A program made the translations under genes and the position numbers. The notes beneath the pieces are model-generated. The model was not told the origin of the DNA and ran no database searches. It was given only the letters and a program-made list of their open reading frames with translations. Positions 32,259 to 53,552 of a stretch of DNA of 64,000 bases are shown one piece after another (the stretch's first letter is position 1; each line of letters begins with the position of its first letter). Source of the stretch: Candidatus Cloacimonadales bacterium (lineage in GTDB: Bacteria > Cloacimonadota > Cloacimonadia > Cloacimonadales > JAFGVF01); contig OY782781.1 of the NCBI GenBank assembly GCA_963678315.1, positions 608,001 to 672,000 of the forward strand, given 5' to 3'.

Positions 32259-32610
32259 GTAAGCAACTATCAAGAGTTGGATTGACTAGCCTTTTCTTAC
32301 ACCTTAAACCCAGATGATGTATTAGACTTGACGAAAAGAGTGCATATTATTTCAGCAAAATATCTTACAGAATCGAAGTTTGAATAATATATATTCTAGC
32401 TGAGATTATGGAACTTATTCTTGCCATGAGTCTTCGCTAAAGCTACGCCCTCACAGGAATAATATAGTGCTATTTTTCAAGTTCTAGTGCATTATTTGGG
32501 TTAAACAAAACATTACAGTAAATAATTTAAAGACCAAGCAGGTAACTAGGAAATATCTTGACAGTCTTATAAACTACTAATATTATTTGATTTATAACAA
32601 AGGAGATTTT

Positions 32611-34437
32611 ATGTGTACAATGAAAAAAGTATTTGTAATCATTATTTTATTTACGTGTTTTGCTTTATTTGCTGACGGAGTAGCCCCTTTAGGAACAGGA
32701 ACAAATGAGGATCCTTATCAAATAGAGACACTTAACAACTTACTATGGTTATCCACAAATCCAGATGTATGGGATGATAATGCCTATTTTATACAGACAA
32801 GTGATATCATTGCTACTGATACTGAAAACTGGAATTATGGTTCAATTCATATACCTCCTTTTGATGTCTATCAGGGGTTTTCCCCAATTGGAACATCTGA
32901 CCAAAATTTTACGGGTCACTATGATGGGCAGGGCTTTTCAATCACAAATTTATATATTTTTAGAGGACAATACCATATTGGCTTATTTGGAAATATTTCT
33001 GGTTCAATTGTTGAAAATGTAGTAATTGAAAATTCGGTGATTGATGGATTGGGCCATGAAGGAGGACTTGTGGGAACATGCGATACATCAGAGATTTCTA
33101 ACTGTATTATGATAAACATTGAAATTAATCAAAACTTTGATGATATGTTACTTAATATTCACAGTCCAAGCGACATTGGAGGTATGATAGGAGACTCCTA
33201 TCTGTCTACAGTAACTAATTGTCAAGCTAGCTGTACACTTAAAGGTTATGATAACATTGGTGGTATAATCGGTTATAACCACCAAACATCAGTAAGTAAT
33301 TCATTTTCCTCTGGAAACCTAATAGGAGAAAACAATATTGGCGGACTAATAGGCTTTAATCAGTTTATGTCTCCAGTAACCTATTGCTACTCAGCTTGTA
33401 ATGTTACAGGGACTGAGGAGGTTGGTGGCTTGATTGGAGATAATACAACTTCTGAAGTTAAAAACTCTTATGCTCTTGGTGCTGTTGAGGGAAATATCCA
33501 GGTCGGGGGTTTAGTTGGTTCCTGCCAAAACGATTCACATGTTAAGTATTGTTATTCAACAGGAAATGTAATTGGAACAACAGACGTAGGTGGTTTGATA
33601 GGAGTTAATTATCAATCAACAGCTGAATCATCATTCTGGGATATGGGTACATCAAATCAAGCAAATAGCATTTTAGGAACTGGAAAGACTACTGTCGAAA
33701 TGCAACTAATCTCAACTTATACCGATGCTGGATGGGATTTTGTTGGTGAATCAGCTAACGGAACCGGAGATATATGGGATATTGATAGTGGATATCCAAT
33801 TATTGTTGCAACTCCGGAAGAAGATGAAACGCTACCGGTTCAGCTATCCTCATTCGATGCTATTGCGACATCATCTAATACTGCTCAATTGAACTGGTCA
33901 ACAGCATCAGAATCTAACCTTCTAGGATACAATATATACAGAAATGAGAACATGGATTCCCAAACAGCTCAAAGAATTAACTCTAATTTAATCACAGCTA
34001 ATAACTTCTCTACAGGCTCAGACTACACTTATATTGATGATGAAATTGAACCAGAGGTTACCTATTATTACTGGCTAGAAAGCTTAGAATTAAGTAATGA
34101 AAATTGCTTATATGGACCTGTGAGTGTTAGAATTGAAACTGTAGAAAATGAGAATGTATTACCTGCAGAAACTATCCTCTTCTCTGCTTATCCAAATCCA
34201 TTCAACCCGCAAACAACTATTAAATTCAATGTTAAAGAAAATGACCAAGCTTCACTCACTATCTTTAACTCTAAAGGACAAGTCGTAAAATCATTAGGAA
34301 ACTACCTTCCAGGACAGCATACACTTGTCTGGAATGGACAAAATAATCAAGGCAAAAATGTATCATCAGGTGTTTATTTTTATCAACTTAAATCAAGTGG
34401 ATATAGCAAGATAAGCAAAATGATGCTTATGAAATAG
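32611..34437 (+). CDS. Secreted GLUG-repeat beta-helix protein with LPVQLSSF domain and FlgD-Ig/T9SS-like CTD
   Basis: GTGTNEDPYQI, repeated (V/I)GGL(I/V)G, TLPVQLSSF, AYPNPFNPQT; AGGAG before ATG 32611. Confidence 0.85.
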   Translation: MCTMKKVFVIIILFTCFALFADGVAPLGTGTNEDPYQIETLNNLLWLSTNPDVWDDNAYFIQTSDIIATDTENWNYGSIHIPPFDVYQGFSPIGTSDQNFTGHYDGQGFSITNLYIFRGQYHIGLFGNISGSIVENVVIENSVIDGLGHEGGLVGTCDTSEISNCIMINIEINQNFDDMLLNIHSPSDIGGMIGDSYLSTVTNCQASCTLKGYDNIGGIIGYNHQTSVSNSFSSGNLIGENNIGGLIGFNQFMSPVTYCYSACNVTGTEEVGGLIGDNTTSEVKNSYALGAVEGNIQVGGLVGSCQNDSHVKYCYSTGNVIGTTDVGGLIGVNYQSTAESSFWDMGTSNQANSILGTGKTTVEMQLISTYTDAGWDFVGESANGTGDIWDIDSGYPIIVATPEEDETLPVQLSSFDAIATSSNTAQLNWSTASESNLLGYNIYRNENMDSQTAQRINSNLITANNFSTGSDYTYIDDEIEPEVTYYYWLESLELSNENCLYGPVSVRIETVENENVLPAETILFSAYPNPFNPQTTIKFNVKENDQASLTIFNSKGQVVKSLGNYLPGQHTLVWNGQNNQGKNVSSGVYFYQLKSSGYSKISKMMLMK

Positions 34438-42870: not shown

Positions 42871-43479
42871 TTAAAATAGTAAATCTTTTATCCACTTTTG
42901 AACATGCTCAATCCCCATCTTTTTTATCGATGAAAAAGGATATACTTCTTGACCATGTAAGTCAAATTCTCTTCTTATTCTAGCCAATTCTTTAGGTATG
43001 GTAGTCTTTTTTATCTTATCACATTTGGTAGCAATCAAGCAAAAAGGAATACCTGATTGAACTAGTAAATCCTTCATTAACAAGTCTTTTGGATCTGCCT
43101 TTCTTCTTACATCGACTAATAGAGCTATCCCTTTTAATTGATATCTCTCCTCAAAGTAAGTTGCAATCATCCTCTTCCAGGAATCTCTTTCTTTTTGAGA
43201 AACTTTAGCAAAACCATATCCCGGCAAATCTGTAATAGTAAAGTATGCTGATTCTTCAGAATTATCAAGTTTTACTCTAATTTCAAAAGTGTTCAACAAT
43301 CTAGTTTTACCAGGTTTACCTGATGTCTTAGCTAGTAATTTCCTATTTAGGATAGTGTTTATCATAGTAGATTTACCCACATTGGAACGACCAGCAAAAG
43401 CTATCTCGCCAAATACTGTCTCAGGATAATCTTTAGGATGAACTGCAGATTTAACAAATTTAGAATCTAATATACGCAT
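42871..43479 (-). CDS. engB: Ribosome biogenesis GTPase YihA/EngB
   Basis: GRSNVGKS, DLPGYG, TKCDK. Confidence 0.95.
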   Translation of the reverse strand: MRILDSKFVKSAVHPKDYPETVFGEIAFAGRSNVGKSTMINTILNRKLLAKTSGKPGKTRLLNTFEIRVKLDNSEESAYFTITDLPGYGFAKVSQKERDSWKRMIATYFEERYQLKGIALLVDVRRKADPKDLLMKDLLVQSGIPFCLIATKCDKIKKTTIPKELARIRREFDLHGQEVYPFSSIKKMGIEHVQKWIKDLLF

Positions 43480-43481
43480 AG

Positions 43482-43850
43482 TTATTCTGAGTAAACTACA
43501 GATGACTTTTCAGATTCCCAAACTTCAATTTCTGCTACTTGACAACCATCTATATCAACCATGCTTTTAAGTCTGTGGTATAGATACTTAGCTATGTTTT
43601 CAGAAGTAGGATTAATCTCATCAAAAGGTTTTATATCATTTAAATTCTTGTGATCCAACTCAGTCATTAAATCATCTAACCATTTCTTAGCTAGAGTAAA
43701 ATCTACTGCCATTCCAAGCTCATCTACTTTTTGACAGTTAAGTGCTATTCTTACCTTCCAGTTGTGACCATGCAAATTCTTGCATAATCCAGGATATTCT
43801 CTCAAGCTATGAGCAGCTGAGAAATGTGATGTCACGTTTATTTTATACAT
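43482..43850 (-). CDS. queD: 6-carboxytetrahydropterin synthase
   Basis: FSAAH, CKNLHGHNW, LDH, PTSENIA. Confidence 0.93.
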   Translation of the reverse strand: MYKINVTSHFSAAHSLREYPGLCKNLHGHNWKVRIALNCQKVDELGMAVDFTLAKKWLDDLMTELDHKNLNDIKPFDEINPTSENIAKYLYHRLKSMVDIDGCQVAEIEVWESEKSSVVYSE

Positions 43851-43949
43851 TCTATTCTCCTAGGTTATATTCTCTTATTTACTATATATTTATACAATTT
43901 TACATAATCATTTTCAACTGCGTAAATGTCAAATAAATTTTCATTTCAA

Positions 43950-44212
43950 CCTTACTGGCCTTCTGCATAAAAAGGCAATTTAATGCAGGAGACCAATAAC
44001 CCAAAGTAACTAGAAAATAAAATAAGGCGTGAAGCCGAAGCTTCACGCCTTATGTGTATGCTATTTTGACGTTATGGACTATTTATCACTAGTAGTGGAG
44101 TGTAAGCATCCACCAATAGGTTGAAGGAACTTCATGCTTACGCAAAGATAAGCACATTGTAGAGACCTTTAACAAAACGTCTCAATCGCAAGCTAGAAGC
44201 TTACAACCCTAG
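43950..44212. repeat. Mosaic REP-like array 4: diverged A, terminator hairpin, E, C, F
   Basis: E at 44096-44146, GTAG-C module at 44159-44183, F ending 1 nt from stop codon 44214. Confidence 0.85.
44022..44053 (-). terminator. Perfect 14-bp hairpin terminator for the upstream minus-strand gene
   Basis: ATAAGGCGTGAAGC-CGAA-GCTTCACGCCTTAT; T-rich tail on the minus strand. Confidence 0.75.
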
Positions 44213-44213
44213 T

Positions 44214-46502
44214 TTATTTCAATTTAAGAACCTTATAAGCTTTTGTTTGTGATGGAGTAGTCATTCTAAAGAAGTAGATGCCATTAGCAGTTTTATTTCC
44301 TTTTGAATCATTACCATTCCATTCGAAAGTATGGTTACCAGCTGAGAAGCTTTCTCTTTTCACTACTTGTCCTAATAGGTTATATACTGTTACACTTGCA
44401 GTCTCCCCATCTTTTACTCGTAAATCAGCTTGTGTGTTTCCTGCAAATGGTGATGGGTATGGATTACCTAAAAGTGTTTCTGTAGGAAGTTGAGGACTAT
44501 CTTCACCAGCTTTAACTTCAACCATGAATGCGTGACTTAGTTCTACTTCATTAGAGAGTTCTCTTGTTTCTAACCAATAGTAGTATCTTCCAGCTGTTAC
44601 TTCATCATCTACAAATGAATATTCAGAAGTTTGACTTGTATTATTAGGAGCAATCATTGAGCTGTTAACTCTTACAGAGTTTTCTACATTCTCAGTTTCA
44701 GCTCTAAGCACATTGAAGCCTAAAAGATTTGATTCTGATTCTGTTACCCAGTTGATTGATACATACTCATCAGAGTAGGCTACAGCATTGAAAGAAGAAA
44801 GGGTTACAGGAAGGGTTTGATTTTCTACATTATTAGTAATAACAATATCAACATCACCTTTTGAACCATCAGTGTAATTAACCATTAAATAAATGAGACC
44901 TTCAGCGGCAATTGCCCACATTCCACCTTCAACATTACCTTTCATGCCTACCATAGTCAATTCAACACCATTAGCATATACATGAGGTGAATTCGTATAC
45001 CAATCCATTGTAAATACTTCACTGTAAAATTCTATGTTAAACGATCCTGTCACATCAAAGTTATAGGAAAAAGCAGCTAGTGACTGGTATGGAAGATTGT
45101 TAGGTAGTGTTTCTGGCACAACTAAGTCACTTGCTTGACTACCATCAGGACTAGTAATGATTACTTGAGAAACTGGATTATTAGCATTTGGGTTATCTGA
45201 GACATCAACTCCAGCTATTGTACTGAAGTTAATTGTTACTGGATCACCTGATTGGTCAGTTCTTACTCCACTAATATTATTTATAGCATAAGTAGTATAT
45301 TCAATGATATATTCAGTTCCATAATCAAGTCCCAGATCAGCCACTTCTATACTTGAAGTTTCAGAAGTTGTATTAAAAACGGTATCTCCACTATCTGCAT
45401 CTTTTATGGTTAAAACATAATAGTTATCATGATTATCAGAAGAATATCCTCCACTCATATTAATGTTATCATGAAGGAAACTGACATTAATAGCTCCATC
45501 ATCAGGGTCAAGAATACCATAATTATCTATTACTAATTCTTCAACCTTAAAATAATGTACATCAGGCTCAAAGTCAATTGGATACAACTTTTCTCCGGTA
45601 GTATTGTTTTCAAAGTATGGTTTAACATACCAAGCATAATCACAATCATAAATAAGACTCAAGAAGTGCCAATTAGATTGCGTAGTGGTTCGTGGTTGAC
45701 CAAAATTATATTCCATTGTTTCATAATTCTTAATACAATAATAGAATTCATAACCACCACTATATCCTGGATCAGGAGAATTTGCAAAATCCTCCCAGTC
45801 TAGGGTAGGACTTAAATCAACATCTGTAGCATAATTGCTAGGAGAGACATACACAACATCTAATGGATGAGTTGGTTCTGCTTCCACAGTATATTCAAAT
45901 CTAATGAAAGGTTTATATTTTTCTGGGGGTGTAGCCATTCTGTTTGTGCCTTTTGCAACTACATCTCCGGGAAAAGATGTGCTACTTTCATCAAGAGCAG
46001 AGACATATGTTCCTGTATCCACTACATTAAATCTGGGATATCCTGGCTGGTTTACTCCATGCCTATTTTCCCAGTATACAATAATATTCCCGCTACCATC
46101 ATATTCAAATGCTGTGTCTAATTCGATAGTAATCCAAGAACCAGCATCTCCATTAAAAACTATTGTGCCAGAATATACTTCAGTTGCCCCAGCAGTAACA
46201 GGATTCTCATAAGAAGTATCAGAAGCTGTAGTGGACAAATCAGTATAACCAATATAAATAGTCTGATTATTACTAGTAAAGTTGCTAATATCATTTCCTA
46301 ACTGGTAAGATAGCTTTGTTATGTTGCATTGTGTGTAATTTAAATCCTCTCCATTATAGATTGTTCTTCCCCAACTATATGCCCAATATTCATTTACTGG
46401 GACATTGTTATTAATTCTAGCTTCTCCACTAACTTCAAAAAATTCCGCATTTGCAATAACACAGGTCATTAACACCAATAAAAGAATAAAACATTTCTTC
46501 AT
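44214..46502 (-). CDS. Secreted modular protein (paralogue 1) with LPVTLSSF domain and FlgD-Ig/T9SS-like CTD
   Basis: Signal peptide MKKCFILL...ANA; GGAG RBS; C-terminal 200 aa nearly identical to 49225..51081. Confidence 0.85.
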   Translation of the reverse strand: MKKCFILLLVLMTCVIANAEFFEVSGEARINNNVPVNEYWAYSWGRTIYNGEDLNYTQCNITKLSYQLGNDISNFTSNNQTIYIGYTDLSTTASDTSYENPVTAGATEVYSGTIVFNGDAGSWITIELDTAFEYDGSGNIIVYWENRHGVNQPGYPRFNVVDTGTYVSALDESSTSFPGDVVAKGTNRMATPPEKYKPFIRFEYTVEAEPTHPLDVVYVSPSNYATDVDLSPTLDWEDFANSPDPGYSGGYEFYYCIKNYETMEYNFGQPRTTTQSNWHFLSLIYDCDYAWYVKPYFENNTTGEKLYPIDFEPDVHYFKVEELVIDNYGILDPDDGAINVSFLHDNINMSGGYSSDNHDNYYVLTIKDADSGDTVFNTTSETSSIEVADLGLDYGTEYIIEYTTYAINNISGVRTDQSGDPVTINFSTIAGVDVSDNPNANNPVSQVIITSPDGSQASDLVVPETLPNNLPYQSLAAFSYNFDVTGSFNIEFYSEVFTMDWYTNSPHVYANGVELTMVGMKGNVEGGMWAIAAEGLIYLMVNYTDGSKGDVDIVITNNVENQTLPVTLSSFNAVAYSDEYVSINWVTESESNLLGFNVLRAETENVENSVRVNSSMIAPNNTSQTSEYSFVDDEVTAGRYYYWLETRELSNEVELSHAFMVEVKAGEDSPQLPTETLLGNPYPSPFAGNTQADLRVKDGETASVTVYNLLGQVVKRESFSAGNHTFEWNGNDSKGNKTANGIYFFRMTTPSQTKAYKVLKLK

Positions 46503-46558
46503 AACGTCTCCTTTGTTTTTTATAAAAGTTTATTTGTTAGTTACATTCTATATATAAT

Positions 46559-46574
46559 AGCAATATTGCGACCA
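46559..46574 (-). promoter_or_regulatory. Putative sigma54 -24/-12 promoter of paralogue 1
   Basis: Minus strand TGGTCGCAATATTGCT = GG-N10-GC, ~57 nt upstream of ATG. Confidence 0.65.
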
Positions 46575-46732
46575 CAGTTTAAAGAAATATTATTATTTTC
46601 TATATTACTGTTATATATAGACTTACATCTTCAACTACACTTATTCATAATCCAGTTTAAAAAACATATTGACAGAATGAGCGTTTTCGCTGTTCAATAA
46701 CGCCATAGTGTGCGAAAACTAAGGAGCTATTT

Positions 46733-49042
46733 ATGACGGAATTATTAAGGAAAATAGATGATGCAAGCAGGCTTGAGCAGTTTGAGATATATTTAGAGAT
46801 TTTTACCAAATGTTTTAATCAAAGAGACATGAAAATCTTTACTTACTTTGATGAGTTTTTATTAAAATGGCAAGAATTTTTGAGCTTTGAGAAAAAGCCT
46901 AACAAGCAAGTTAGAAACCTTATTAGTAAAGATTTTGAACTTTTCTTTAGATTTATTAGAGCTTCAAACAATCTTGATGCCTTTAACAAATTTCTACCTG
47001 TCTTTCTAGACAATGAAAAGTATTTAAGTAACTATTTCTACCTAGCTAATATCTATGACTATTTTGGATATTTAATGTGGTTAAAGCATGACATTAAGGC
47101 TGGAGTAGATTACTTACTTAAAGCTCTAGATATAGCAAATAAGCACTGCAAACCCAACGAGCTTCCTGGACGTTATACTAATTTAGGCTATCTTTATGAA
47201 GTTGTTGGAGACCTTAGTAAAGCTGAATATTATTATAACGAAGGCTTAGATTTTGCTCTTAAATTCAATTCTATTAATGCCTTAAAATTAGCTTATAATG
47301 CTATGGGAAGACTATATATTGGCAAAAACTTATTTGACAAGGCTATTGAATATTTTGAAGATAGCTTGAGTCTTTATGATAGGGAAAAAGATGTTGATAA
47401 GGTAACAGTAATTAACAACCTTGCAATGTGTTATAGAGCTATTGATGATAATAAAAGAGCTAAAACTCTCTATGAAAGTCTTGATAAAGAATGGTTATTA
47501 CAAAAAGACCCAGAATTATATTTTTCCGTGCAAACTAATCTAGGAAATATTCTTAGCACCTACAAAGACTTCAAGCAAGCAGAAGAGAAATTTCTAAAAT
47601 CTTTAGACTTTGCAGAAAAAGTTAAGGCACTCGACCAAGTTATTTCTATCTATATTAGCCTGGGAAATCTATATAATAGTACAGATAGAAAGGAACAAGG
47701 TATTGAAATTCTTGAAAAGGCACTTCATCTTAGTATAGAAAGCAAAAATCACAGAAAGCTAAAATCTATATATGCTGACTTTGCAGACATCTATATAGAA
47801 CAAAACGAATATGAGCTTGCTCTTTCATATATTGAAAAATTAATTGAGATAGCTGAAGAAGTTAATAATTCTGCTTTCCAAATAGAAACACTTAAAAAAC
47901 AAGCATTTTGCTATGAAAAACTTAAAGATTATAAGAAAGCATGTACTTGTTACAACAAACTTTATAAAATGCAGGCACAAGTCGAAGAAGAGAAAAAAGC
48001 CAAGATGAGAAAAGACGAGCTCAAACTGGTAGGCAAAAGCAAAAGAAAACACTTCATTTTCCAAGGAAATGATTCCCTTATTTCTAGAGAATTATCTGCA
48101 AAAATTGGAACAAACCTTATTGGTAAAGATCCTGCCATGCAGACCCTTATCAATAAAGTTTTGCTAGCTTCTTCAAACTGCGATGCATCTATTCTTATCA
48201 GAGGAGAATCGGGAACTGGCAAAGATATTATTGCCCGAATCATTCATTATTCTAGTCTTAGAAAAGAACATCCTTTCATTGCTGTTAACTCTGGTTCTTT
48301 CTCTCCAGGAATAGTTAATTCTGCATTATTTGGCCACAAGAAAGGTGCATTTACTGGGGCTGTAACCGACCATGTTGGTTATTTTGAAGCTGCGAAAGGT
48401 GGTACCATATTCATGGACGAGATCGGAGAAATGCCTCAAGATATTCAAATTGCTCTCTTGCGTGTTCTTGAAGATAAGAAAGTGCTTCCAATTGGTTCAA
48501 CTAAAGCTATTCCAGTCAATTTTAGACTTATTTCTGCTACGAATGTCGATATCAATGAAGAAGTAAAACAAGGCAAGTTAAGGCTGGATTTCCTTAATAG
48601 AATCAACACTGTTGAAATTAATGTACCTGCCCTTCGAGAAAGAAAAGATGATATTCCTGTACTTGTTGAAGCTTTCTTAGATGAGATCTCTCTCAAAATG
48701 AAGATTAAAAAACCAAAATTTTCCATTTCTGCTCTAAGAACCTTAATGAGTTACGACTTTCCAGGCAATGTTAGAGAACTCAGAAATATGATTGAAAATC
48801 TTATGATTTTTAATGATAAAAAAGAAATTACACCTGATGATATTTATAATCTAAGTCTGAAACTCCATACAAGCATTGATGCTTCTAATAATCTTCCAAC
48901 CTTAAATTTAGAGGTACTAGAAAAAAATGCTATCATAAGAGCTATGAAAGATTCTAATAATGTTAAAACTTCTGCAGCAAAATTGCTAGGAATAACACCT
49001 TATGCACTTCACAGAAGAATTGTAAAATATGGGTTAGTTTAG
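46733..49042 (+). CDS. TPR-repeat sigma54-dependent enhancer-binding protein (TPR-AAA+-Fis HTH)
   Basis: Multiple TPRs; GESGTGKD, intact GAFTGA, FMDEIGE, FPGNVREL, C-terminal AAKLLGI HTH. Confidence 0.93.
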   Translation: MTELLRKIDDASRLEQFEIYLEIFTKCFNQRDMKIFTYFDEFLLKWQEFLSFEKKPNKQVRNLISKDFELFFRFIRASNNLDAFNKFLPVFLDNEKYLSNYFYLANIYDYFGYLMWLKHDIKAGVDYLLKALDIANKHCKPNELPGRYTNLGYLYEVVGDLSKAEYYYNEGLDFALKFNSINALKLAYNAMGRLYIGKNLFDKAIEYFEDSLSLYDREKDVDKVTVINNLAMCYRAIDDNKRAKTLYESLDKEWLLQKDPELYFSVQTNLGNILSTYKDFKQAEEKFLKSLDFAEKVKALDQVISIYISLGNLYNSTDRKEQGIEILEKALHLSIESKNHRKLKSIYADFADIYIEQNEYELALSYIEKLIEIAEEVNNSAFQIETLKKQAFCYEKLKDYKKACTCYNKLYKMQAQVEEEKKAKMRKDELKLVGKSKRKHFIFQGNDSLISRELSAKIGTNLIGKDPAMQTLINKVLLASSNCDASILIRGESGTGKDIIARIIHYSSLRKEHPFIAVNSGSFSPGIVNSALFGHKKGAFTGAVTDHVGYFEAAKGGTIFMDEIGEMPQDIQIALLRVLEDKKVLPIGSTKAIPVNFRLISATNVDINEEVKQGKLRLDFLNRINTVEINVPALRERKDDIPVLVEAFLDEISLKMKIKKPKFSISALRTLMSYDFPGNVRELRNMIENLMIFNDKKEITPDDIYNLSLKLHTSIDASNNLPTLNLEVLEKNAIIRAMKDSNNVKTSAAKLLGITPYALHRRIVKYGLV

Positions 49043-49058
49043 CTTATTTTTTCCTCAC

Positions 49059-49223
49059 CCTTACTGCCCTCCTTGAAAAAAACCATTTTTTCAAGGAGGC
49101 AAGTAAGGAAGGACTGTGACAGGCGAAGACTGTTGCTTGCAATTTGAAGCCGGCTATCCGGCAGTAGCCGGACTAAAGGCCCAGCGTTCCCAGTAATAGT
49201 AAGCAAGTAACTTACAATCCTAG
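49059..49223. repeat. Mosaic REP-like array 5: A fused to D, then B, F
   Basis: Modules match arrays 1, 2, 3 and 6; lies between convergent stop codons. Confidence 0.88.
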
Positions 49224-49224
49224 T

Positions 49225-51081
49225 TTATTTCAATTTAAGAACCTTATAAGATTTTGTTTGTGATGGAGTAGTCATTCTAAAGAAGTAAATGCCACTTGCA
49301 GTCTTATTTCCTTTTGAATCATTACCATTCCATTCGAATGTGTGGTTTCCAGCAGAGAAGCTTTCTCTCTTCACTACTTGCCCTAATAGGTTATAAACAG
49401 TTACACTTGCAGTCTCACCATCTTTAACTCGTAAATCAGCTTGTGTGTTTCCTGCAAATGGTGAAGGATATGGGTTACCTAGAAGTGTTTCTGTAGGAAG
49501 TTGAGGACTATCATCACCAGCTTTAACTTCAACCATGAATGCTTGACTTAGCTCAACTTCATTAGAGAGTTCTCTTGTTTCTAACCAGTAGTAATAAATC
49601 CCTGCTGTTACTTCATCATCTACAAATGAATACTCAGAAGTTTGACTTGTATTATTAGGAGCAATCATTGAGCTGTTAACTCTTACAGAGTTTTCTACAT
49701 TCTCACTTTCAGCTCTAAGCACATTGAAGCCTAAAAGATTTGATTCTGATTCTGTTACCCAGTTGATTGATACATATTCATCAGAGTAGGCTACAGCATT
49801 GAAAGAAGAAAGGGTTACAGGAAGGGTATTATCTTCAAGATTAGTGACAACAATATCTTTCTCACCTTTAGAACCATCATAGTAGTATTCAATGCCAAGT
49901 CCTCCACCTTCTACACCTATCCATTCCACTGCATATACTAACTCATTACCACCAATATATAAATGAGCATTTCCATTTATGATATCATCAGTGAAAAGTT
50001 GTGATTCAATTAATATTGTATAGTCTCCAATAAGATCAAAGTCATAGCTACAAGCCACTAATGGCTGATAATCATAATCTGTTGGAAGTTCTGCTAAAAT
50101 CTGAGGAACATTTGGTATAGCGTTGTCAGGAATTACTATTTCAATATCTGTAATCGGATTTTCTTCAACTGGTGTATCAGGAGCAGCACCAGCTAAAGTG
50201 TAGAAAGTAACTATTTCAGGGTTCTCTGTAGGATAAATTTTAACTAAATCTTTTTCATAAAATGGCTTAACTGAACAGGTGTATGATGTTGAATAATCTA
50301 CCCTACCTTCAAGAGCATAAGAATTGCCATCTACAACATCTATTTGCTCACCATTAAAGATTATTTCATAGCCTCTGTTATATCCTTCTAAGATCGGAAG
50401 TTCATTCCAACTTAAGTATGCGTCTAATCTTACGTTAACTTCATTATTTTGAGGATTAACTATGTCTACAAGAGGACATTCTGGCTCAGGACTATTTTCA
50501 ATATTGAATCTAATATTAGGTTTGTAGTCACTTAAAGTGCCATTACTAGTTGGAAAAGATGCATCCAAATATTTATATACAGAAGAATTATTTACATTAT
50601 CACAAAACCATTTTGGGTATCCACCTGCCCAAGAACCATTTCTGTTTTCCCAATAGATTACAATATTATCTGTTCCATTGTATTCAAAATCATTCATATT
50701 GAAATCAATTTCAAACCAATGCGCAGCAGTTCCATTAAAATTAATATTTCCATCAAATACTTTAGTAGCACCATTCAAAAGAGGATTGTCATAAATACTA
50801 TTACTAAAACTACTCGCAGTTTCGTGCTTAATATATATTGTTTGATTTAGCATTTCATAATTATCTGGACTATTATAAAACTGATATTGTAGCCCAGTTA
50901 TTGTGTTAGCCGTATTTTGTAAATCTTCTGCTTTGTAGATTACTTTTGACCAAGTATAACTATAAAAGCCATAGACAGGAACATATTTACTACTACTTGT
51001 TCCTCCACTACATTCAATAAATTCTGCAAAAAGGGATAGACTAAAAACCATAACAAATATGACTACAACAATTTTCTTCAT
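49225..51081 (-). CDS. Secreted modular protein (paralogue 2) with LPVTLSSF domain and FlgD-Ig/T9SS-like CTD
   Basis: Signal peptide MKKIVV...LFA; AGGAG RBS; homologous to 44214..46502. Confidence 0.85.
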   Translation of the reverse strand: MKKIVVVIFVMVFSLSLFAEFIECSGGTSSSKYVPVYGFYSYTWSKVIYKAEDLQNTANTITGLQYQFYNSPDNYEMLNQTIYIKHETASSFSNSIYDNPLLNGATKVFDGNINFNGTAAHWFEIDFNMNDFEYNGTDNIVIYWENRNGSWAGGYPKWFCDNVNNSSVYKYLDASFPTSNGTLSDYKPNIRFNIENSPEPECPLVDIVNPQNNEVNVRLDAYLSWNELPILEGYNRGYEIIFNGEQIDVVDGNSYALEGRVDYSTSYTCSVKPFYEKDLVKIYPTENPEIVTFYTLAGAAPDTPVEENPITDIEIVIPDNAIPNVPQILAELPTDYDYQPLVACSYDFDLIGDYTILIESQLFTDDIINGNAHLYIGGNELVYAVEWIGVEGGGLGIEYYYDGSKGEKDIVVTNLEDNTLPVTLSSFNAVAYSDEYVSINWVTESESNLLGFNVLRAESENVENSVRVNSSMIAPNNTSQTSEYSFVDDEVTAGIYYYWLETRELSNEVELSQAFMVEVKAGDDSPQLPTETLLGNPYPSPFAGNTQADLRVKDGETASVTVYNLLGQVVKRESFSAGNHTFEWNGNDSKGNKTASGIYFFRMTTPSQTKSYKVLKLK

Positions 51082-51144
51082 AATAACTCCTTTGTTTGTT
51101 TGTTTAAAACTAAATTATTGTTTTACATTCATATTTATCTAATG

Positions 51145-51160
51145 TGCATGATTTAGACCA
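51145..51160 (-). promoter_or_regulatory. Putative sigma54 -24/-12 promoter of paralogue 2
   Basis: Minus strand TGGTCTAAATCATGCA = GG-N10-GC, ~64 nt upstream of ATG. Confidence 0.6.
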
Positions 51161-51310
51161 CCTGGATAAATATTTATATTTTGTTATGTAACAAATATTT
51201 AGCATTTATGAAGATGAAAAATTGTTTTAATCAAGTATAATCAAATCCCGTTTTCGGTATAAGAAAAATCTCAATATCGGGATTTATGCATTTTAATGCT
51301 GAAAATAAGA

Positions 51311-51503
51311 TGAAGTGTAAGCATCCACCGCTAGGTTGAAGGAAGTTCATGCTTATGCAAAGATAAGCCTTCTGTAGAGACGTTTGGAAAAACGTCTCAA
51401 TCGCAAGCGGAATGCTAACAATTTGATGCCGGCTATCCGGCAGTAGCCGGACTAAAGGCACAGCGTTCCCAGTAATAGCAAGCTAAAAGCTTGCAAGCCC
51501 TAG
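51311..51503. repeat. Mosaic REP-like array 6: E, C, partial F, B, F
   Basis: 51311-51408 repeats 44096-44193; 51419-51503 repeats 49140-49223. Confidence 0.9.
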
Positions 51504-52280
51504 CTACTTAGCTCTTTTAAGTAAATTATTAATTCTTTCTTGTGAAAGCTTATTAGACCACAATCCTTCTTCTTTAACATAAGAACCAACTATAACTGCA
51601 TCGGCGTATTGAAGATAAGATTTGATATTATCAGCATTAATACCTGAACCGATCAAGACAGGGATACTAACAGCAGATTTCACAGCTTTAAGCTCTTCTA
51701 TATCAGCACTTACACCTGTAGAAATGCCTGTTACGATAAGGCCATCTGCGTTAAAGAACTGAGCAGCTTTAGCAGTTTCAACAATATCGACATCAGCAGT
51801 AATTGCATGAGCTGAATGTTTCTTCTTGATATCAACAATAACTTTTACATTATCAGCACCTATCTGTTTGCGATAGCGTAATAATTCACCTGCACAAGAA
51901 TTCATTAATCCTTCATCTGCAACATGAGAGAAAACAAAGCCTTCAGCCCTGATAAAATCAGCTCCAGAAGTATAAGCTACAGCAAGAGCTTCTTTGTTAG
52001 CTCCTGCCAGAATTTGTATGCCAAGATTTATATCAAATCTTTTCTTTAATTCATAAGCTAATATTGCCATTGAGGAAGTTATCTCAGGTCCAACGCTATT
52101 GAGCAAATAGGGGGTGTCATGCATGTTTTCTATTATCAGACTAGTGATACCACTATTTAGATAAATTTCAGCCTCTCTTAAGCTAAAATCGATGATTTCT
52201 TGCATTGATTTGTGGTTACGGGGAGTACCAGGTAAAGCTTGAACATGCAACATGCTAATTATATCTTTGTTTAATTTCAT
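51504..52280 (-). CDS. BtpA/SgcQ family TIM-barrel protein
   Basis: MLHVQALPGTP, IENMHDTPY, DIKKKH, ADGLIVTG; start probably 52280. Confidence 0.88.
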   Translation of the reverse strand: MKLNKDIISMLHVQALPGTPRNHKSMQEIIDFSLREAEIYLNSGITSLIIENMHDTPYLLNSVGPEITSSMAILAYELKKRFDINLGIQILAGANKEALAVAYTSGADFIRAEGFVFSHVADEGLMNSCAGELLRYRKQIGADNVKVIVDIKKKHSAHAITADVDIVETAKAAQFFNADGLIVTGISTGVSADIEELKAVKSAVSIPVLIGSGINADNIKSYLQYADAVIVGSYVKEEGLWSNKLSQERINNLLKRAK

Positions 52281-52315
52281 TGTATTTCCTTTTTGTAACA
52301 TCCAGCTATCTTAAT

Positions 52316-52492
52316 GTAGAGACGCTTCATAGGTGCGTCTAAAAATAACGGTGCAAGAAGAATCGCAGTCTAGAAGACTGCAACCCATAAAGCACTGGGA
52401 GTGTAAGCTTCCAGCTTACGCAAAAGAATCGCATTCACGATGAATGCAACCCATAAAGCACTGGGAGTGTAAGCTTCCAGCTTACGCAAAAG
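52316..52492. repeat. Mosaic REP-like array 7: C-like hairpin plus two 66-bp tandem units of back-to-back F-type hairpins
   Basis: AACCCATAAAGCACTGGGAGTGTAAGCTTCCAGCTTACGCAAAAG occurs twice with a 66-bp period. Confidence 0.9.
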
Positions 52493-52499
52493 CATAATC

Positions 52500-53552
52500 T
52501 TATAGTAATTTATCGTTATTTTCTTTAAGGTATTCTACTACTTTTTTAACGTCTTCTGATCTATCCTTTTTAGATAGCAGAATAGCATCATCTGTCTCAA
52601 TTAAGACAAGGTTCTCAACTCCAATTAGAGAAACAAACTTCTTACTTCTAATGTAGTTACCTCTGGCTTCTATTGTAAAATGTTCTGCTTCAAAAGTGTT
52701 GTCATCTTCATCAATTTTAGAAATATCTGCTAAAGCTCTCCAAGAACCGACATCACTCCAACCTAAATCAACAGGAAGAACTACTCTCTTTTCTGCTTTT
52801 TCCATAATACCAATATCAACTGGGATTTTAGGCATTTTAGCGTATAAATGAGAGATATCAGCATCTAATCCCTGCTCTTTCCACACTGTACTTATCTTAT
52901 CAAGAACTTCCACTACTTGAGGAAGACATTTCTTATAGTTGTTTTCGATAGTTTCAATAGTCCAGGCAAACATACCACTATTCCAGAAGAAGTTTCCTGC
53001 TTGAATGAACTCTTGAGCAAGCTCATAATTAGGCTTTTCTTTAAACTTAGAAACTTGGTAGCAAGTATCACTAAGCTTATCTCCAGCTTCGATATAACCA
53101 TAGCCTGTGGCAGGATAAGTTGGAATAATACCAAAAGTAACAAGGTTATTATCCTCAGCAGGTTTTTCAGCATTATACATGCTTTCCCAGAAGGCATCTA
53201 TTTTAGTTATAAGATGGTCAGCAGGTAATACTACCATAGTTTCATTAGCTTGAGCAAAGAGCTTAACATAAGCATAACTGAGGCCGATACATGGAGCTGT
53301 ATTCATACCAAAAGGTTCAGCAATGATGTTTTCAACTGGAAGTTCATTAAGATGTTCTTTAACTAAATGAACTTGTGATTGAGCTGTTACAACGAAGATT
53401 TTCTCTTTAGGAAGCTTTTCTAGAAGTCTATCCATTGTTAATCTAATCATAGATTTAGAGCCAACAACTTCTAGGAATTGTTTAGGTTTAACTTTTCTAC
53501 TTTGTGGCCAAAAACGAGTACCTGAACCACCAGCCATAATGACAGCAATCAT
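52500..53552 (-). CDS. manC: Mannose-1-phosphate guanylyltransferase
   Basis: MAGGSGTRFWPQSR, LPADH, FKEKP, WNSGMF, WSDVGSW. Confidence 0.93.
   Translation of the reverse strand: MIAVIMAGGSGTRFWPQSRKVKPKQFLEVVGSKSMIRLTMDRLLEKLPKEKIFVVTAQSQVHLVKEHLNELPVENIIAEPFGMNTAPCIGLSYAYVKLFAQANETMVVLPADHLITKIDAFWESMYNAEKPAEDNNLVTFGIIPTYPATGYGYIEAGDKLSDTCYQVSKFKEKPNYELAQEFIQAGNFFWNSGMFAWTIETIENNYKKCLPQVVEVLDKISTVWKEQGLDADISHLYAKMPKIPVDIGIMEKAEKRVVLPVDLGWSDVGSWRALADISKIDEDDNTFEAEHFTIEARGNYIRSKKFVSLIGVENLVLIETDDAILLSKKDRSEDVKKVVEYLKENNDKLL

Follow-up and report, generated by a model that had tools for sequence, protein, structure and literature searches.

The stretch analysed here (the window) comprises 64,000 nt of a Candidatus Cloacimonadales bacterium, bases 608001–672000 of the single 2.99-Mb contig (32.8% G+C) of the genome labelled G000. 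The subject is a locus of three genes within it: EBP1, which encodes a predicted sigma-54 activator with a large tetratricopeptide repeat (TPR) domain at its N-terminus, and two flanking genes, CTD1 and CTD2, which encode paralogous secreted proteins of the type carried by the type IX secretion system (T9SS). CTD1 is transcribed divergently from EBP1 and CTD2 convergently with it. Each cargo gene is preceded by a -24/-12 promoter element and, further upstream, by a compact array of palindromic octamers (Table 1). A first-pass annotation of the window had described this arrangement as a self-contained sigma-54 regulon, an activator flanked by its two targets. All the elements it listed are present, namely the promoter elements at 46559–46574 and 51145–51160, both inverted repeats further upstream, and the word GAATGTAA downstream of each promoter element. 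The comparisons described below favour a different wiring, in which EBP1 probably drives CTD1, and CTD2 is more likely to answer to a second activator of the same kind, EBP3, or to both.

Table 1. Genes and sequence features of the EBP1 locus (window coordinates)
Feature	Position	Strand	Length	Description
CTD1	44214–46502	-	762 aa	Secreted T9SS-type cargo, divergent from EBP1
CTD1 -24/-12 element	46559–46574	-		TGGTCGCAATATTGCT, 56 nt before ATG
TTGACA	46669–46674	+		Presumed -35 hexamer of the EBP1 sigma-70 promoter (inferred)
EBP1-type enhancer	46682–46720			Three octamers: CGTTTTCG 46682–46689; CAATAACG 46695–46702; CGAAAACT 46713–46720 (7 of 8)
EBP1	46733–49042	+	769 aa	Sigma-54 activator, TPR-AAA+-HTH
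Hairpin	49059–49108			Between convergent EBP1 and CTD2; 23-nt arms, 91% complementary, 4-nt loop, A/T runs on both sides
Modular intergenic repeat	49134–49220	+		One copy of a family that occurs genome-wide
CTD2	49225–51081	-	618 aa	T9SS-type cargo, paralogue of CTD1, convergent with EBP1
CTD2 -24/-12 element	51145–51160	-		TGGTCTAAATCATGCA, 63 nt before ATG
EBP3-type enhancer	51246–51282			Envelope TCCCG-N27-CGGGA; two octamers, CGTTTTCG 51249–51256 and CAATATCG 51272–51279, 15 nt apart

Judged by domain content and motifs, EBP1 is an intact and complete sigma-54 activator. A TPR superhelix (residues 1–424) is followed by a linker (~425–460), an AAA+ domain with GAFTGA motif and lid (462–705), and a Fis-type helix-turn-helix (HTH) at 726–766. 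The Pfam family Sigma54_activat (PF00158) matches residues 462–629 with an E-value of 5.9e-58, AAA_lid_14 is also matched, and HTH_8 (E 1e-9) covers residues 726–766, so that the C-terminal DNA-binding domain is present. Several TPR families match between residues ~187 and 415. No Pfam match to REC, GAF or PAS domains was found in EBP1 at E-values up to 0.01, and all NCBIfam equivalogs score below their cut-offs. Across 14 aligned homologues, the Walker A (G491, E492, G494, G496, K497) and Walker B (D562, E563) residues are invariant. The loop that would contact sigma-54 reads GHKKGAFTGAV, in which G538, T541 and A543 are invariant, and F540 and G542 nearly so. Pfam and alignment therefore uphold the annotation's description of an activator with TPRs in place of REC, GAF or PAS and with an intact GAFTGA, the TPR region being all-helical and some 425 residues long. 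It had also named the presence of rpoN as a check to be made, and the genome does contain this gene, at full length, as one open reading frame (ORF) of 486 aa with the domains Sigma54_AID, Sigma54_CBD and Sigma54_DBD. Sigma54_activat matches occur at 12 places in the genome, 10 of them strong, and three belong to proteins of ~750–770 aa with a long helical N-terminus: EBP1, EBP2 (just outside the window) and EBP3 (690 kb away).

The octamers of the EBP1-side array have a palindromic core, CG-W4-CG, which is often extended to TGCG-W4-CGCA. The array lies between the presumed -35 hexamer and the ribosome-binding site of the EBP1 gene, and at the same time 107–143 nt upstream of the divergent CTD1 element. 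Its outer octamer pair corresponds to the inverted repeat GTTTTCGC/GCGAAAAC (46683–46690 and 46712–46719). On the CTD2 side, the inverted repeat AAATCCCG/CGGGATTT (51243–51250 and 51278–51285) forms the outer arms of the array, and both inverted repeats contain CGTTTTCG. The proposal that these repeats are activator sites holds to the extent that they belong to conserved, enhancer-like arrays at fixed promoter distances, but they are in fact the outer parts of octamer arrays. Of the 14 copies of the word CGAAAACG/CGTTTTCG in 2.99 Mb, three lie inside the three enhancer-like arrays. Only one array of the EBP1 type is present in this genome.

The layout of the array recurs in relatives down to 35% protein identity, with the order TTGAC(A/T/G), up to three octamers, ribosome-binding site and ATG. 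The hexamer adjoins the array in 12 of 13 loci; at the remaining one, L047, an insertion separates the hexamer nearest the activator. Among the loci of 12 relatives, the 3.6 kb upstream of activators contain 14 strict CG-W4-CG sites and the other 139.8 kb contain 12; ten loci have at least one such site upstream of the activator (binomial p 3e-16). Four of the 12 outside sites form pairs that precede a -24/-12 element. Modules that keep all three octamers have them at about 139–143, 121–125 and 107–113 nt from the promoter, and several distant relatives retain only one or two. The same geometry is found in five further arrays away from the start of an activator gene (two in tandem in genome G001, one each in G003, G005 and G007), each preceding a -24/-12 element and an ORF with a signal-peptide-like start. 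This separates the coupling of array and promoter from mere autoregulation of the activator. In G001, three tandem cargo genes lie by the EBP1 orthologue (loci L153 and L048; C1 ~1130300–1139130), and upstream of each there is a -24/-12 element and a three-octamer array that is nearly the same in all three.

Full-length homologues of EBP1 are 67–69% identical in six genomes of the same family and 35–48% identical in other families of the order. At seven of the 12 loci fetched, a cargo gene with a shared C-terminal module of ~200 aa is divergent from the EBP1 homologue, and at an eighth an ORF of 1146 aa takes this position. A -24/-12 element on the divergent strand is present at 11 of 13 loci, the window included. 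It lies 158–206 nt from the activator ATG in nine of these, and in two it is displaced by insertions to 318 and 1027 nt. The two loci without the element are L044, which has no divergent gene, and L049, at a contig edge. A survey of orthologous loci, as the annotation had suggested, thus recovers the divergent cargo gene and the promoter element, but not the TGGTC start by which it had characterised the element. Taken with their conservation, the GG-N10-GC elements of CTD1 and CTD2, with arrays 88–143 nt upstream, have the appearance of genuine sigma-54 target promoters.

A word-based search with EBP1 residues 1–445 gave 13 clusters that also contain Sigma54_activat, and a profile search of 1.84 billion representatives gave, among the best 150 matches, 18 that are near full length in a single stretch; sixteen of these are 769–788 aa, two are 586 and 710 aa, and the rest of the best 150 are repetitive giant TPR proteins. 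The EBP1-type N-terminal domain (E up to 1e-40) is found in 30 of 201 genomes of the phylum, representing 19 of 61 genera, all but one in the same order. A genome scan with the full-length EBP1 alignment retrieved generic activators of many phyla and nothing specific to the family, because its patterns derive from the AAA+ domain. In public records, these proteins are named only “sigma 54-interacting transcriptional regulator”. Among RNA data, none was listed for the stretch, and four runs bearing the same species label as a DNA run that contains it gave 0 reads, which does not amount to a test of expression.

The flanking genes, which the annotation had described as secreted paralogues, encode paralogous proteins of T9SS cargo type: the type A sorting domain TIGR04183 scores 36.7 bits in CTD1 and 41.6 in CTD2 (cut-off 23), and Por_Secre_tail is just under its cut-off of 27 in both (26.3 and 26.4 bits). 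Residues 682–757 of CTD1 show Pfam matches to FlgD_ig, CHU_C and Por_Secre_tail. Both N-termini, by reading, resemble signal peptides, with MKK, a hydrophobic stretch and an Ala-rich cleavage-like site. CTD1 is built of beta-rich passenger domains, the shared C-terminal module of ~200 aa and the sorting domain. Identity between the two proteins is 34% in an N-terminal alignment of 356 columns and rises to 67% in the C-terminal 371. Several giant proteins of the genome open with a version of the N-terminal ~230 residues, and the C-terminal ~200 residues are found again on proteins whose passenger domains are quite different. An AlphaFold2 model of CTD2 (predicted local distance difference test, pLDDT, 75; predicted TM-score 0.37) is a chain of beta-sandwich domains, with fold matches of low TM-score to strings of Ig/Fn3-like domains, a Bacteroides surface glycan-binding protein and an S-layer protein. 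On this basis CTD1 and CTD2 are predicted to be surface-attached binding or adhesin-like proteins. The T9SS machinery itself is encoded in the genome, with PorU at 573.6 bits (cut-off 420), SprA at 517.4 bits summed (cut-off 200), and a PorV-like protein at 131.8 bits, below the cut-off of 250.

Promoter elements of this kind are concentrated at such cargo genes. When TGG-N9-TGC[AT] was counted 10–150 nt upstream of 2232 genes from crude longest-ORF calls, 25 genes were found to carry it, CTD1 and CTD2 included, and 13 of the 25 are T9SS-CTD genes, of which the genome has 131 (odds ratio 19, p 1.6e-10). One element-bearing cargo gene (~540248–543313) adjoins a 457-aa activator (~543473–544846) that has no similarity to the TPR region of EBP1. 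At C1 593485–597994 of G000, 12 kb ahead of the window, EBP2 is in tandem upstream of a cargo gene whose called start is preceded, at 121 nt, by TGGTCCTAAGATTGCA; this locus lacks a CG-W4-CG array, so that the binding site of EBP2 is probably different. Within the window, the gene at 32587–34437 is a further cargo paralogue, in which GLUG-like repeats are joined to the shared C-terminal module; a search of the 330 nt before its called start revealed no -24/-12 element.

The array upstream of CTD2 matches that of another activator. Its octamers are 111 and 88 nt upstream of the CTD2 element, and at all ten EBP3 loci two octamers lie 110–113 and 87–90 nt from a -24/-12 element, with TCCCG/CGGGA-type flanks at most of them. 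In the non-coding DNA of the genome, TCCCG-N27-CGGGA occurs twice, upstream of CTD2 and between EBP3 and its divergent target. Across 12 family genomes, the longer pattern TCCCGWWWWNG-N15-CNWWWWCGGGA has six matches, of which five adjoin EBP3 orthologues and the remaining one is the CTD2 array; its reversed control has none. Orthologues of EBP3 are present in nine of 11 family genomes. Since flanks, site number and position are all of the EBP3 type, the locus is probably not the self-contained, two-target regulon that the annotation had described. At the EBP3 loci (10 of 10; L136–L145) the -24/-12 element ends 12–13 nt before the ATG of a conserved ORF of 65–73 aa, which has no Pfam family. 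From this spacing, transcription would be expected to start at the start codon, so that either the message is leaderless or the ORF is a non-coding leader. In G000 (C1 ~1346467–1346832), the cargo gene CTD3 follows this ORF.

Two other features had been taken as marks of a common regulon, the TGGTC start of both elements and GAATGTAA downstream of them. The latter has 171 copies in the genome, and the chance that two AT-rich stretches of 60 nt share some 8-mer is estimated at ~10%. It is missing from the orthologous promoters, where the elements start with TGGCTC, TGGAAT, TGGAAG or GGGAAT in place of TGGTC. Over the ~155 nt nearest the promoter, CTD1 and CTD2 align as diverged duplicates (z 4.6 in local alignment, with none of 200 shuffles reaching the score), and this explains why both features are shared. 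As functional motifs they were rejected, being attributable to paralogy and lacking conservation in orthologues. The simplest history would be that a cargo gene was duplicated together with its promoter, after which the enhancer of one copy changed.

The locus is best read as a module of sigma-54 activator and cargo. What sequence and its comparison between genomes show is an activator of this architecture, an rpoN gene, the promoter elements, and octamer arrays whose geometry is fixed and which are conserved. Which protein pairs with which array, whether EBP1 regulates its own gene and is held in check by its TPR domain, and what kind of ligand it responds to are matters of inference. EBP1 would be a cytoplasmic enhancer-binding protein with a TPR superhelix of ~425 residues as its input domain. 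Its Fis-type HTH most likely binds the three octamers as dimers; these sites overlie the presumed sigma-70 promoter and the 5' leader of EBP1 itself. From this position, 107–143 nt upstream, the AAA+ ring would contact the sigma-54 holoenzyme at TGGTCGCAATATTGCT and open the CTD1 promoter, and the same binding probably throttles transcription of EBP1 itself. CTD2 would also be sigma-54 dependent, driven most likely by EBP3 from 690 kb away, or by both activators. The TPR domain most likely keeps the ATPase inactive until a ligand is bound. To the reading as a whole, that EBP1 drives CTD1, that CTD2 is driven by EBP3 or by both, and that the TPR domain is ligand-gated, we assign a probability of about 0.65.

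Several observations weigh against it. CTD2 adjoins EBP1 and has a homologous promoter-proximal region in common with CTD1. The CG-W4-CG core is found in both the EBP1 and the EBP3 type of array, as is a site at ~110 nt from the promoter, so that EBP1 might also use the CTD2 array and cross-activation is conceivable. A weak sigma-70-like pair with an upstream TG, TTTAAA-18-TATTAT, overlaps the CTD1 element and would allow some sigma-70 transcription of that gene. The genome-wide counts of elements depend on the crude gene calls, and the p-values overstate the evidence, as genomes of close kin are not independent. Taken alone, the loose two-octamer pattern of the EBP1 type lacks specificity, and more matches were obtained with its reversed control. 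The reversed pattern lacks CpG, which makes it an unfair control and probably explains the excess, and matches to the loose pattern were used individually, after a check of their context. Finally, as regards the ligand, the fold match is a generic one, and EBP1 has no conserved partner gene at its side.

In the AlphaFold2 model of residues 1–445, made from a 12-row alignment, the TPR domain is all helical with a mean pLDDT of 90.8, and its 22 helices extend to residue 424, where a low-confidence linker begins. Neither a membrane segment nor a signal peptide is apparent at the N-terminus, as read from sequence and model. Foldseek against PDB finds general TPR superhelices, with LGN/Pins best (E ~4e-9, TM 0.4–0.55), and a protein atlas search with the same residues returned generic TPR clusters alone (scores 0.88–0.91). 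Such a generic solenoid does not permit a choice between peptide, protein and small ligand. A patch at residues 145–156, P-x-R-Y-T-N-x-G-x-x-Y-E, is invariant in 12 homologues down to 27% identity, and is the obvious candidate for a ligand or interdomain surface. We lean tentatively, and with less than even confidence, towards a protein or peptide ligand.

In an alternative reading of the input domain, it is not a peptide receptor of the RRNPP type, and serves instead as a sensor of small molecules, as in MalT, or as a docking surface for an anti-activator. The match of TPR_MalT to EBP1 is above its cut-off (51.3 bits against 45), which equally allows a small-molecule ligand. The peptide receptors NprR (E 1.7e-7, TM 0.46–0.55) and Rap are placed only 34th and 41st in the fold search, and the weaker relatives of the N-terminus in the word-based search are TPR histidine kinases, CHAT proteins and cyclases. 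Across the window and the loci of 12 relatives, no gene beside EBP1 is conserved except the cargo gene, and no adjacent, conserved small ORF that might be a candidate for a pro-peptide was found at EBP1, whose neighbourhood also contains no paralogue of the small ORF seen at the EBP3 loci. Against this stands the fact that LGN/Pins, the best fold matches, bind extended peptides in their groove. We consider this alternative doubtful, if well worth keeping in mind.

Somewhat less probable still is the model of the first-pass annotation, in which EBP1 alone binds both inverted repeats and activates both flanking paralogues. It draws on the features already named, that is, the adjacency of both genes to EBP1, the CGTTTTCG octamer and core common to the two arrays, the site ~110 nt from the promoter in both array types, and the duplicated promoter-proximal regions, and further on the relatives in which EBP1 orthologues serve two or three targets, such as G001 with its three arrays. 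The extra targets of these relatives, however, carry the three-octamer array with TGCG/CGCA flanks, whereas CTD2 has the two octamers, the TCCCG/CGGGA flanks and the 111- and 88-nt spacing seen at the EBP3 loci. The recognition helix also differs between the clades, being x-Y-A/S-L-x-R-R/K in 13 EBP1-type and (A/N)-N-(S/A)-I-A-R-(R/K) in 10 EBP3-type proteins, and the downstream genes at three orthologous loci are not orthologues of CTD2 and lack such an array. Very improbable is a third possibility, that the -24/-12 elements are non-working look-alikes, sigma-70 reads both cargo genes, and the arrays are autoregulatory operators or the sites of another regulator: AT-rich DNA does hold sigma-70-like pairs, one of them overlapping the CTD1 element, and autoregulation alone could retain an array that overlaps the presumed promoter of the activator, but such pairs occur in the two control regions at the level expected from shuffles (4 against 2.5 ± 1.7, and 9 against 10.6 ± 3.8), the elements are few in the genome as a whole and concentrated at T9SS cargo genes, and they keep a fixed distance from the array in distant relatives and at the five remote arrays, for which autoregulation cannot account.

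The module preferred here, of EBP1 acting on CTD1 under control of its TPR domain, resembles several known systems in part. Like EBP1, enteric NtrC is a sigma-54 activator with a C-terminal Fis-type HTH; at glnA it has several dimer sites ~100–140 bp upstream, and these overlap a sigma-70 promoter and serve for both activation and repression, as proposed for EBP1. The input of NtrC is a phosphorylated receiver, in contrast to a TPR superhelix with no kinase partner in the locus, its target is nitrogen metabolism rather than T9SS cargo, and the octamer sequence differs. In XylR/DmpR, NorR and NifA an N-terminal sensor with linker represses the AAA+ domain until a signal arrives, which is the logic proposed for EBP1, but their sensors are V4R/XylR_N or GAF domains for small molecules or metals, to which EBP1 has no match. 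A TPR input would also suit an activator set by a protein partner, as in PspF–PspA, HrpS–HrpV and NifA–NifL; these activators lack TPRs and have the partner gene in the same cluster, whereas EBP1 has no conserved partner gene adjacent.

Outside the sigma-54 activators, the RRNPP regulators (Rap, NprR, PlcR, PrgX) have a TPR superhelix as a cytoplasmic sensor, with a generic likeness in fold to EBP1. They have an N-terminal HTH or phosphatase, a C-terminal TPR domain and no ATPase, in contrast to the order TPR, AAA+, HTH. They also have an adjacent pro-peptide gene, which EBP1 does not, and the host of EBP1 has a T9SS and so is not a Firmicute. By its architecture, EBP1 is not an RRNPP member. 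In MalT, as in EBP1, a TPR-like domain (the source of the TPR_MalT match) controls an activator that contains an ATPase, but MalT is a STAND NTPase with a LuxR-type HTH that works with sigma-70, and EBP1 combines a GAFTGA-bearing sigma-54 AAA+ domain with an HTH of the Fis type.

The remaining features of the locus concern its intergenic DNA and the 3' ends of the cargo genes. The hairpin between EBP1 and CTD2 is probably a bidirectional terminator, judging from its arms and flanking A/T runs; a terminator scan omits it, as it does not satisfy the scan's rules for loop and T-run. A second copy of the modular repeat that lies next to it, 87% identical, is found at 51413–51499, and the pair brackets the CTD2 unit. 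These 87-nt direct repeats were considered as the possible ends of a mobile cassette; they are members of a modular repeat family spread through the genome: two intergenic queries flanking CTD2 gave 378 BLAST alignments in the genome, mostly to modules of ~50 nt. The intergenic DNA at 49045–49225 and 51286–51503, as at many other sites of the genome, is built of such G+C-rich, hairpin-forming modules of ~50 nt. A search of 43000–53000 against Rfam identified no family, and gave two sub-threshold chance matches.

The last ~600 nt of CTD1 and CTD2 (44214–44815 and 49225–49825) are 88–100% identical, with an abrupt boundary, and the stretch occurs at the same level of identity in a third gene. 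A fourth gene, CTD3, is 68–87% identical over it; the copies outside the window lie in G000 at C1 ~1913500–1914108 and ~1344009–1344610. The passenger domains of the genes that share it differ, being adhesin-like, of GLUG repeats or beta-helix-like. The pattern is suggestive of a common anchor module that has undergone gene conversion or cassette exchange.

The classification of sigma-54 activators rests on the input domain, and a large TPR superhelix in that role is without a described example in the literature searched. Within the portion of that literature available to us, nothing on point was found for TPR-input sigma-54 activators or for sigma-54 control of type IX cargo. That sigma-54 controls the cell exterior is the title theme of Francke et al. 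2011 (PMC3162934), and a term search of the main text of that paper finds no occurrence of TPR, tetratricopeptide or Bacteroidetes. With 13 of the 25 promoter-bearing genes being T9SS cargo, the present genome would extend that idea (PMC3162934) to this secretion route. With its parts defined as one activator, an enhancer of three sites, the promoter at a set distance from it and a single cargo gene, the module would lend itself to the study of how a TPR domain gates an AAA+ ring. CTD1 and CTD2 further suggest that a duplicated cargo gene may be reassigned between paralogous activators by a change of enhancer alone. Joined into one picture, which we regard as speculative and in its entirety unlikely to hold, TPR-input activators would be an undescribed class of cytoplasmic, ligand-gated sigma-54 switches confined to one little-studied, T9SS-bearing phylum. 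Each copy would be tied through a private palindromic enhancer of three or two sites to one or a few genes for surface proteins, cargo would move between activators by a swap of enhancer with the promoter kept, sigma-54 would be the main route to T9SS cargo, and the TPR groove would read a protein or peptide cue. If this last part is true, such a groove would be the sigma-54 counterpart of RRNPP logic.

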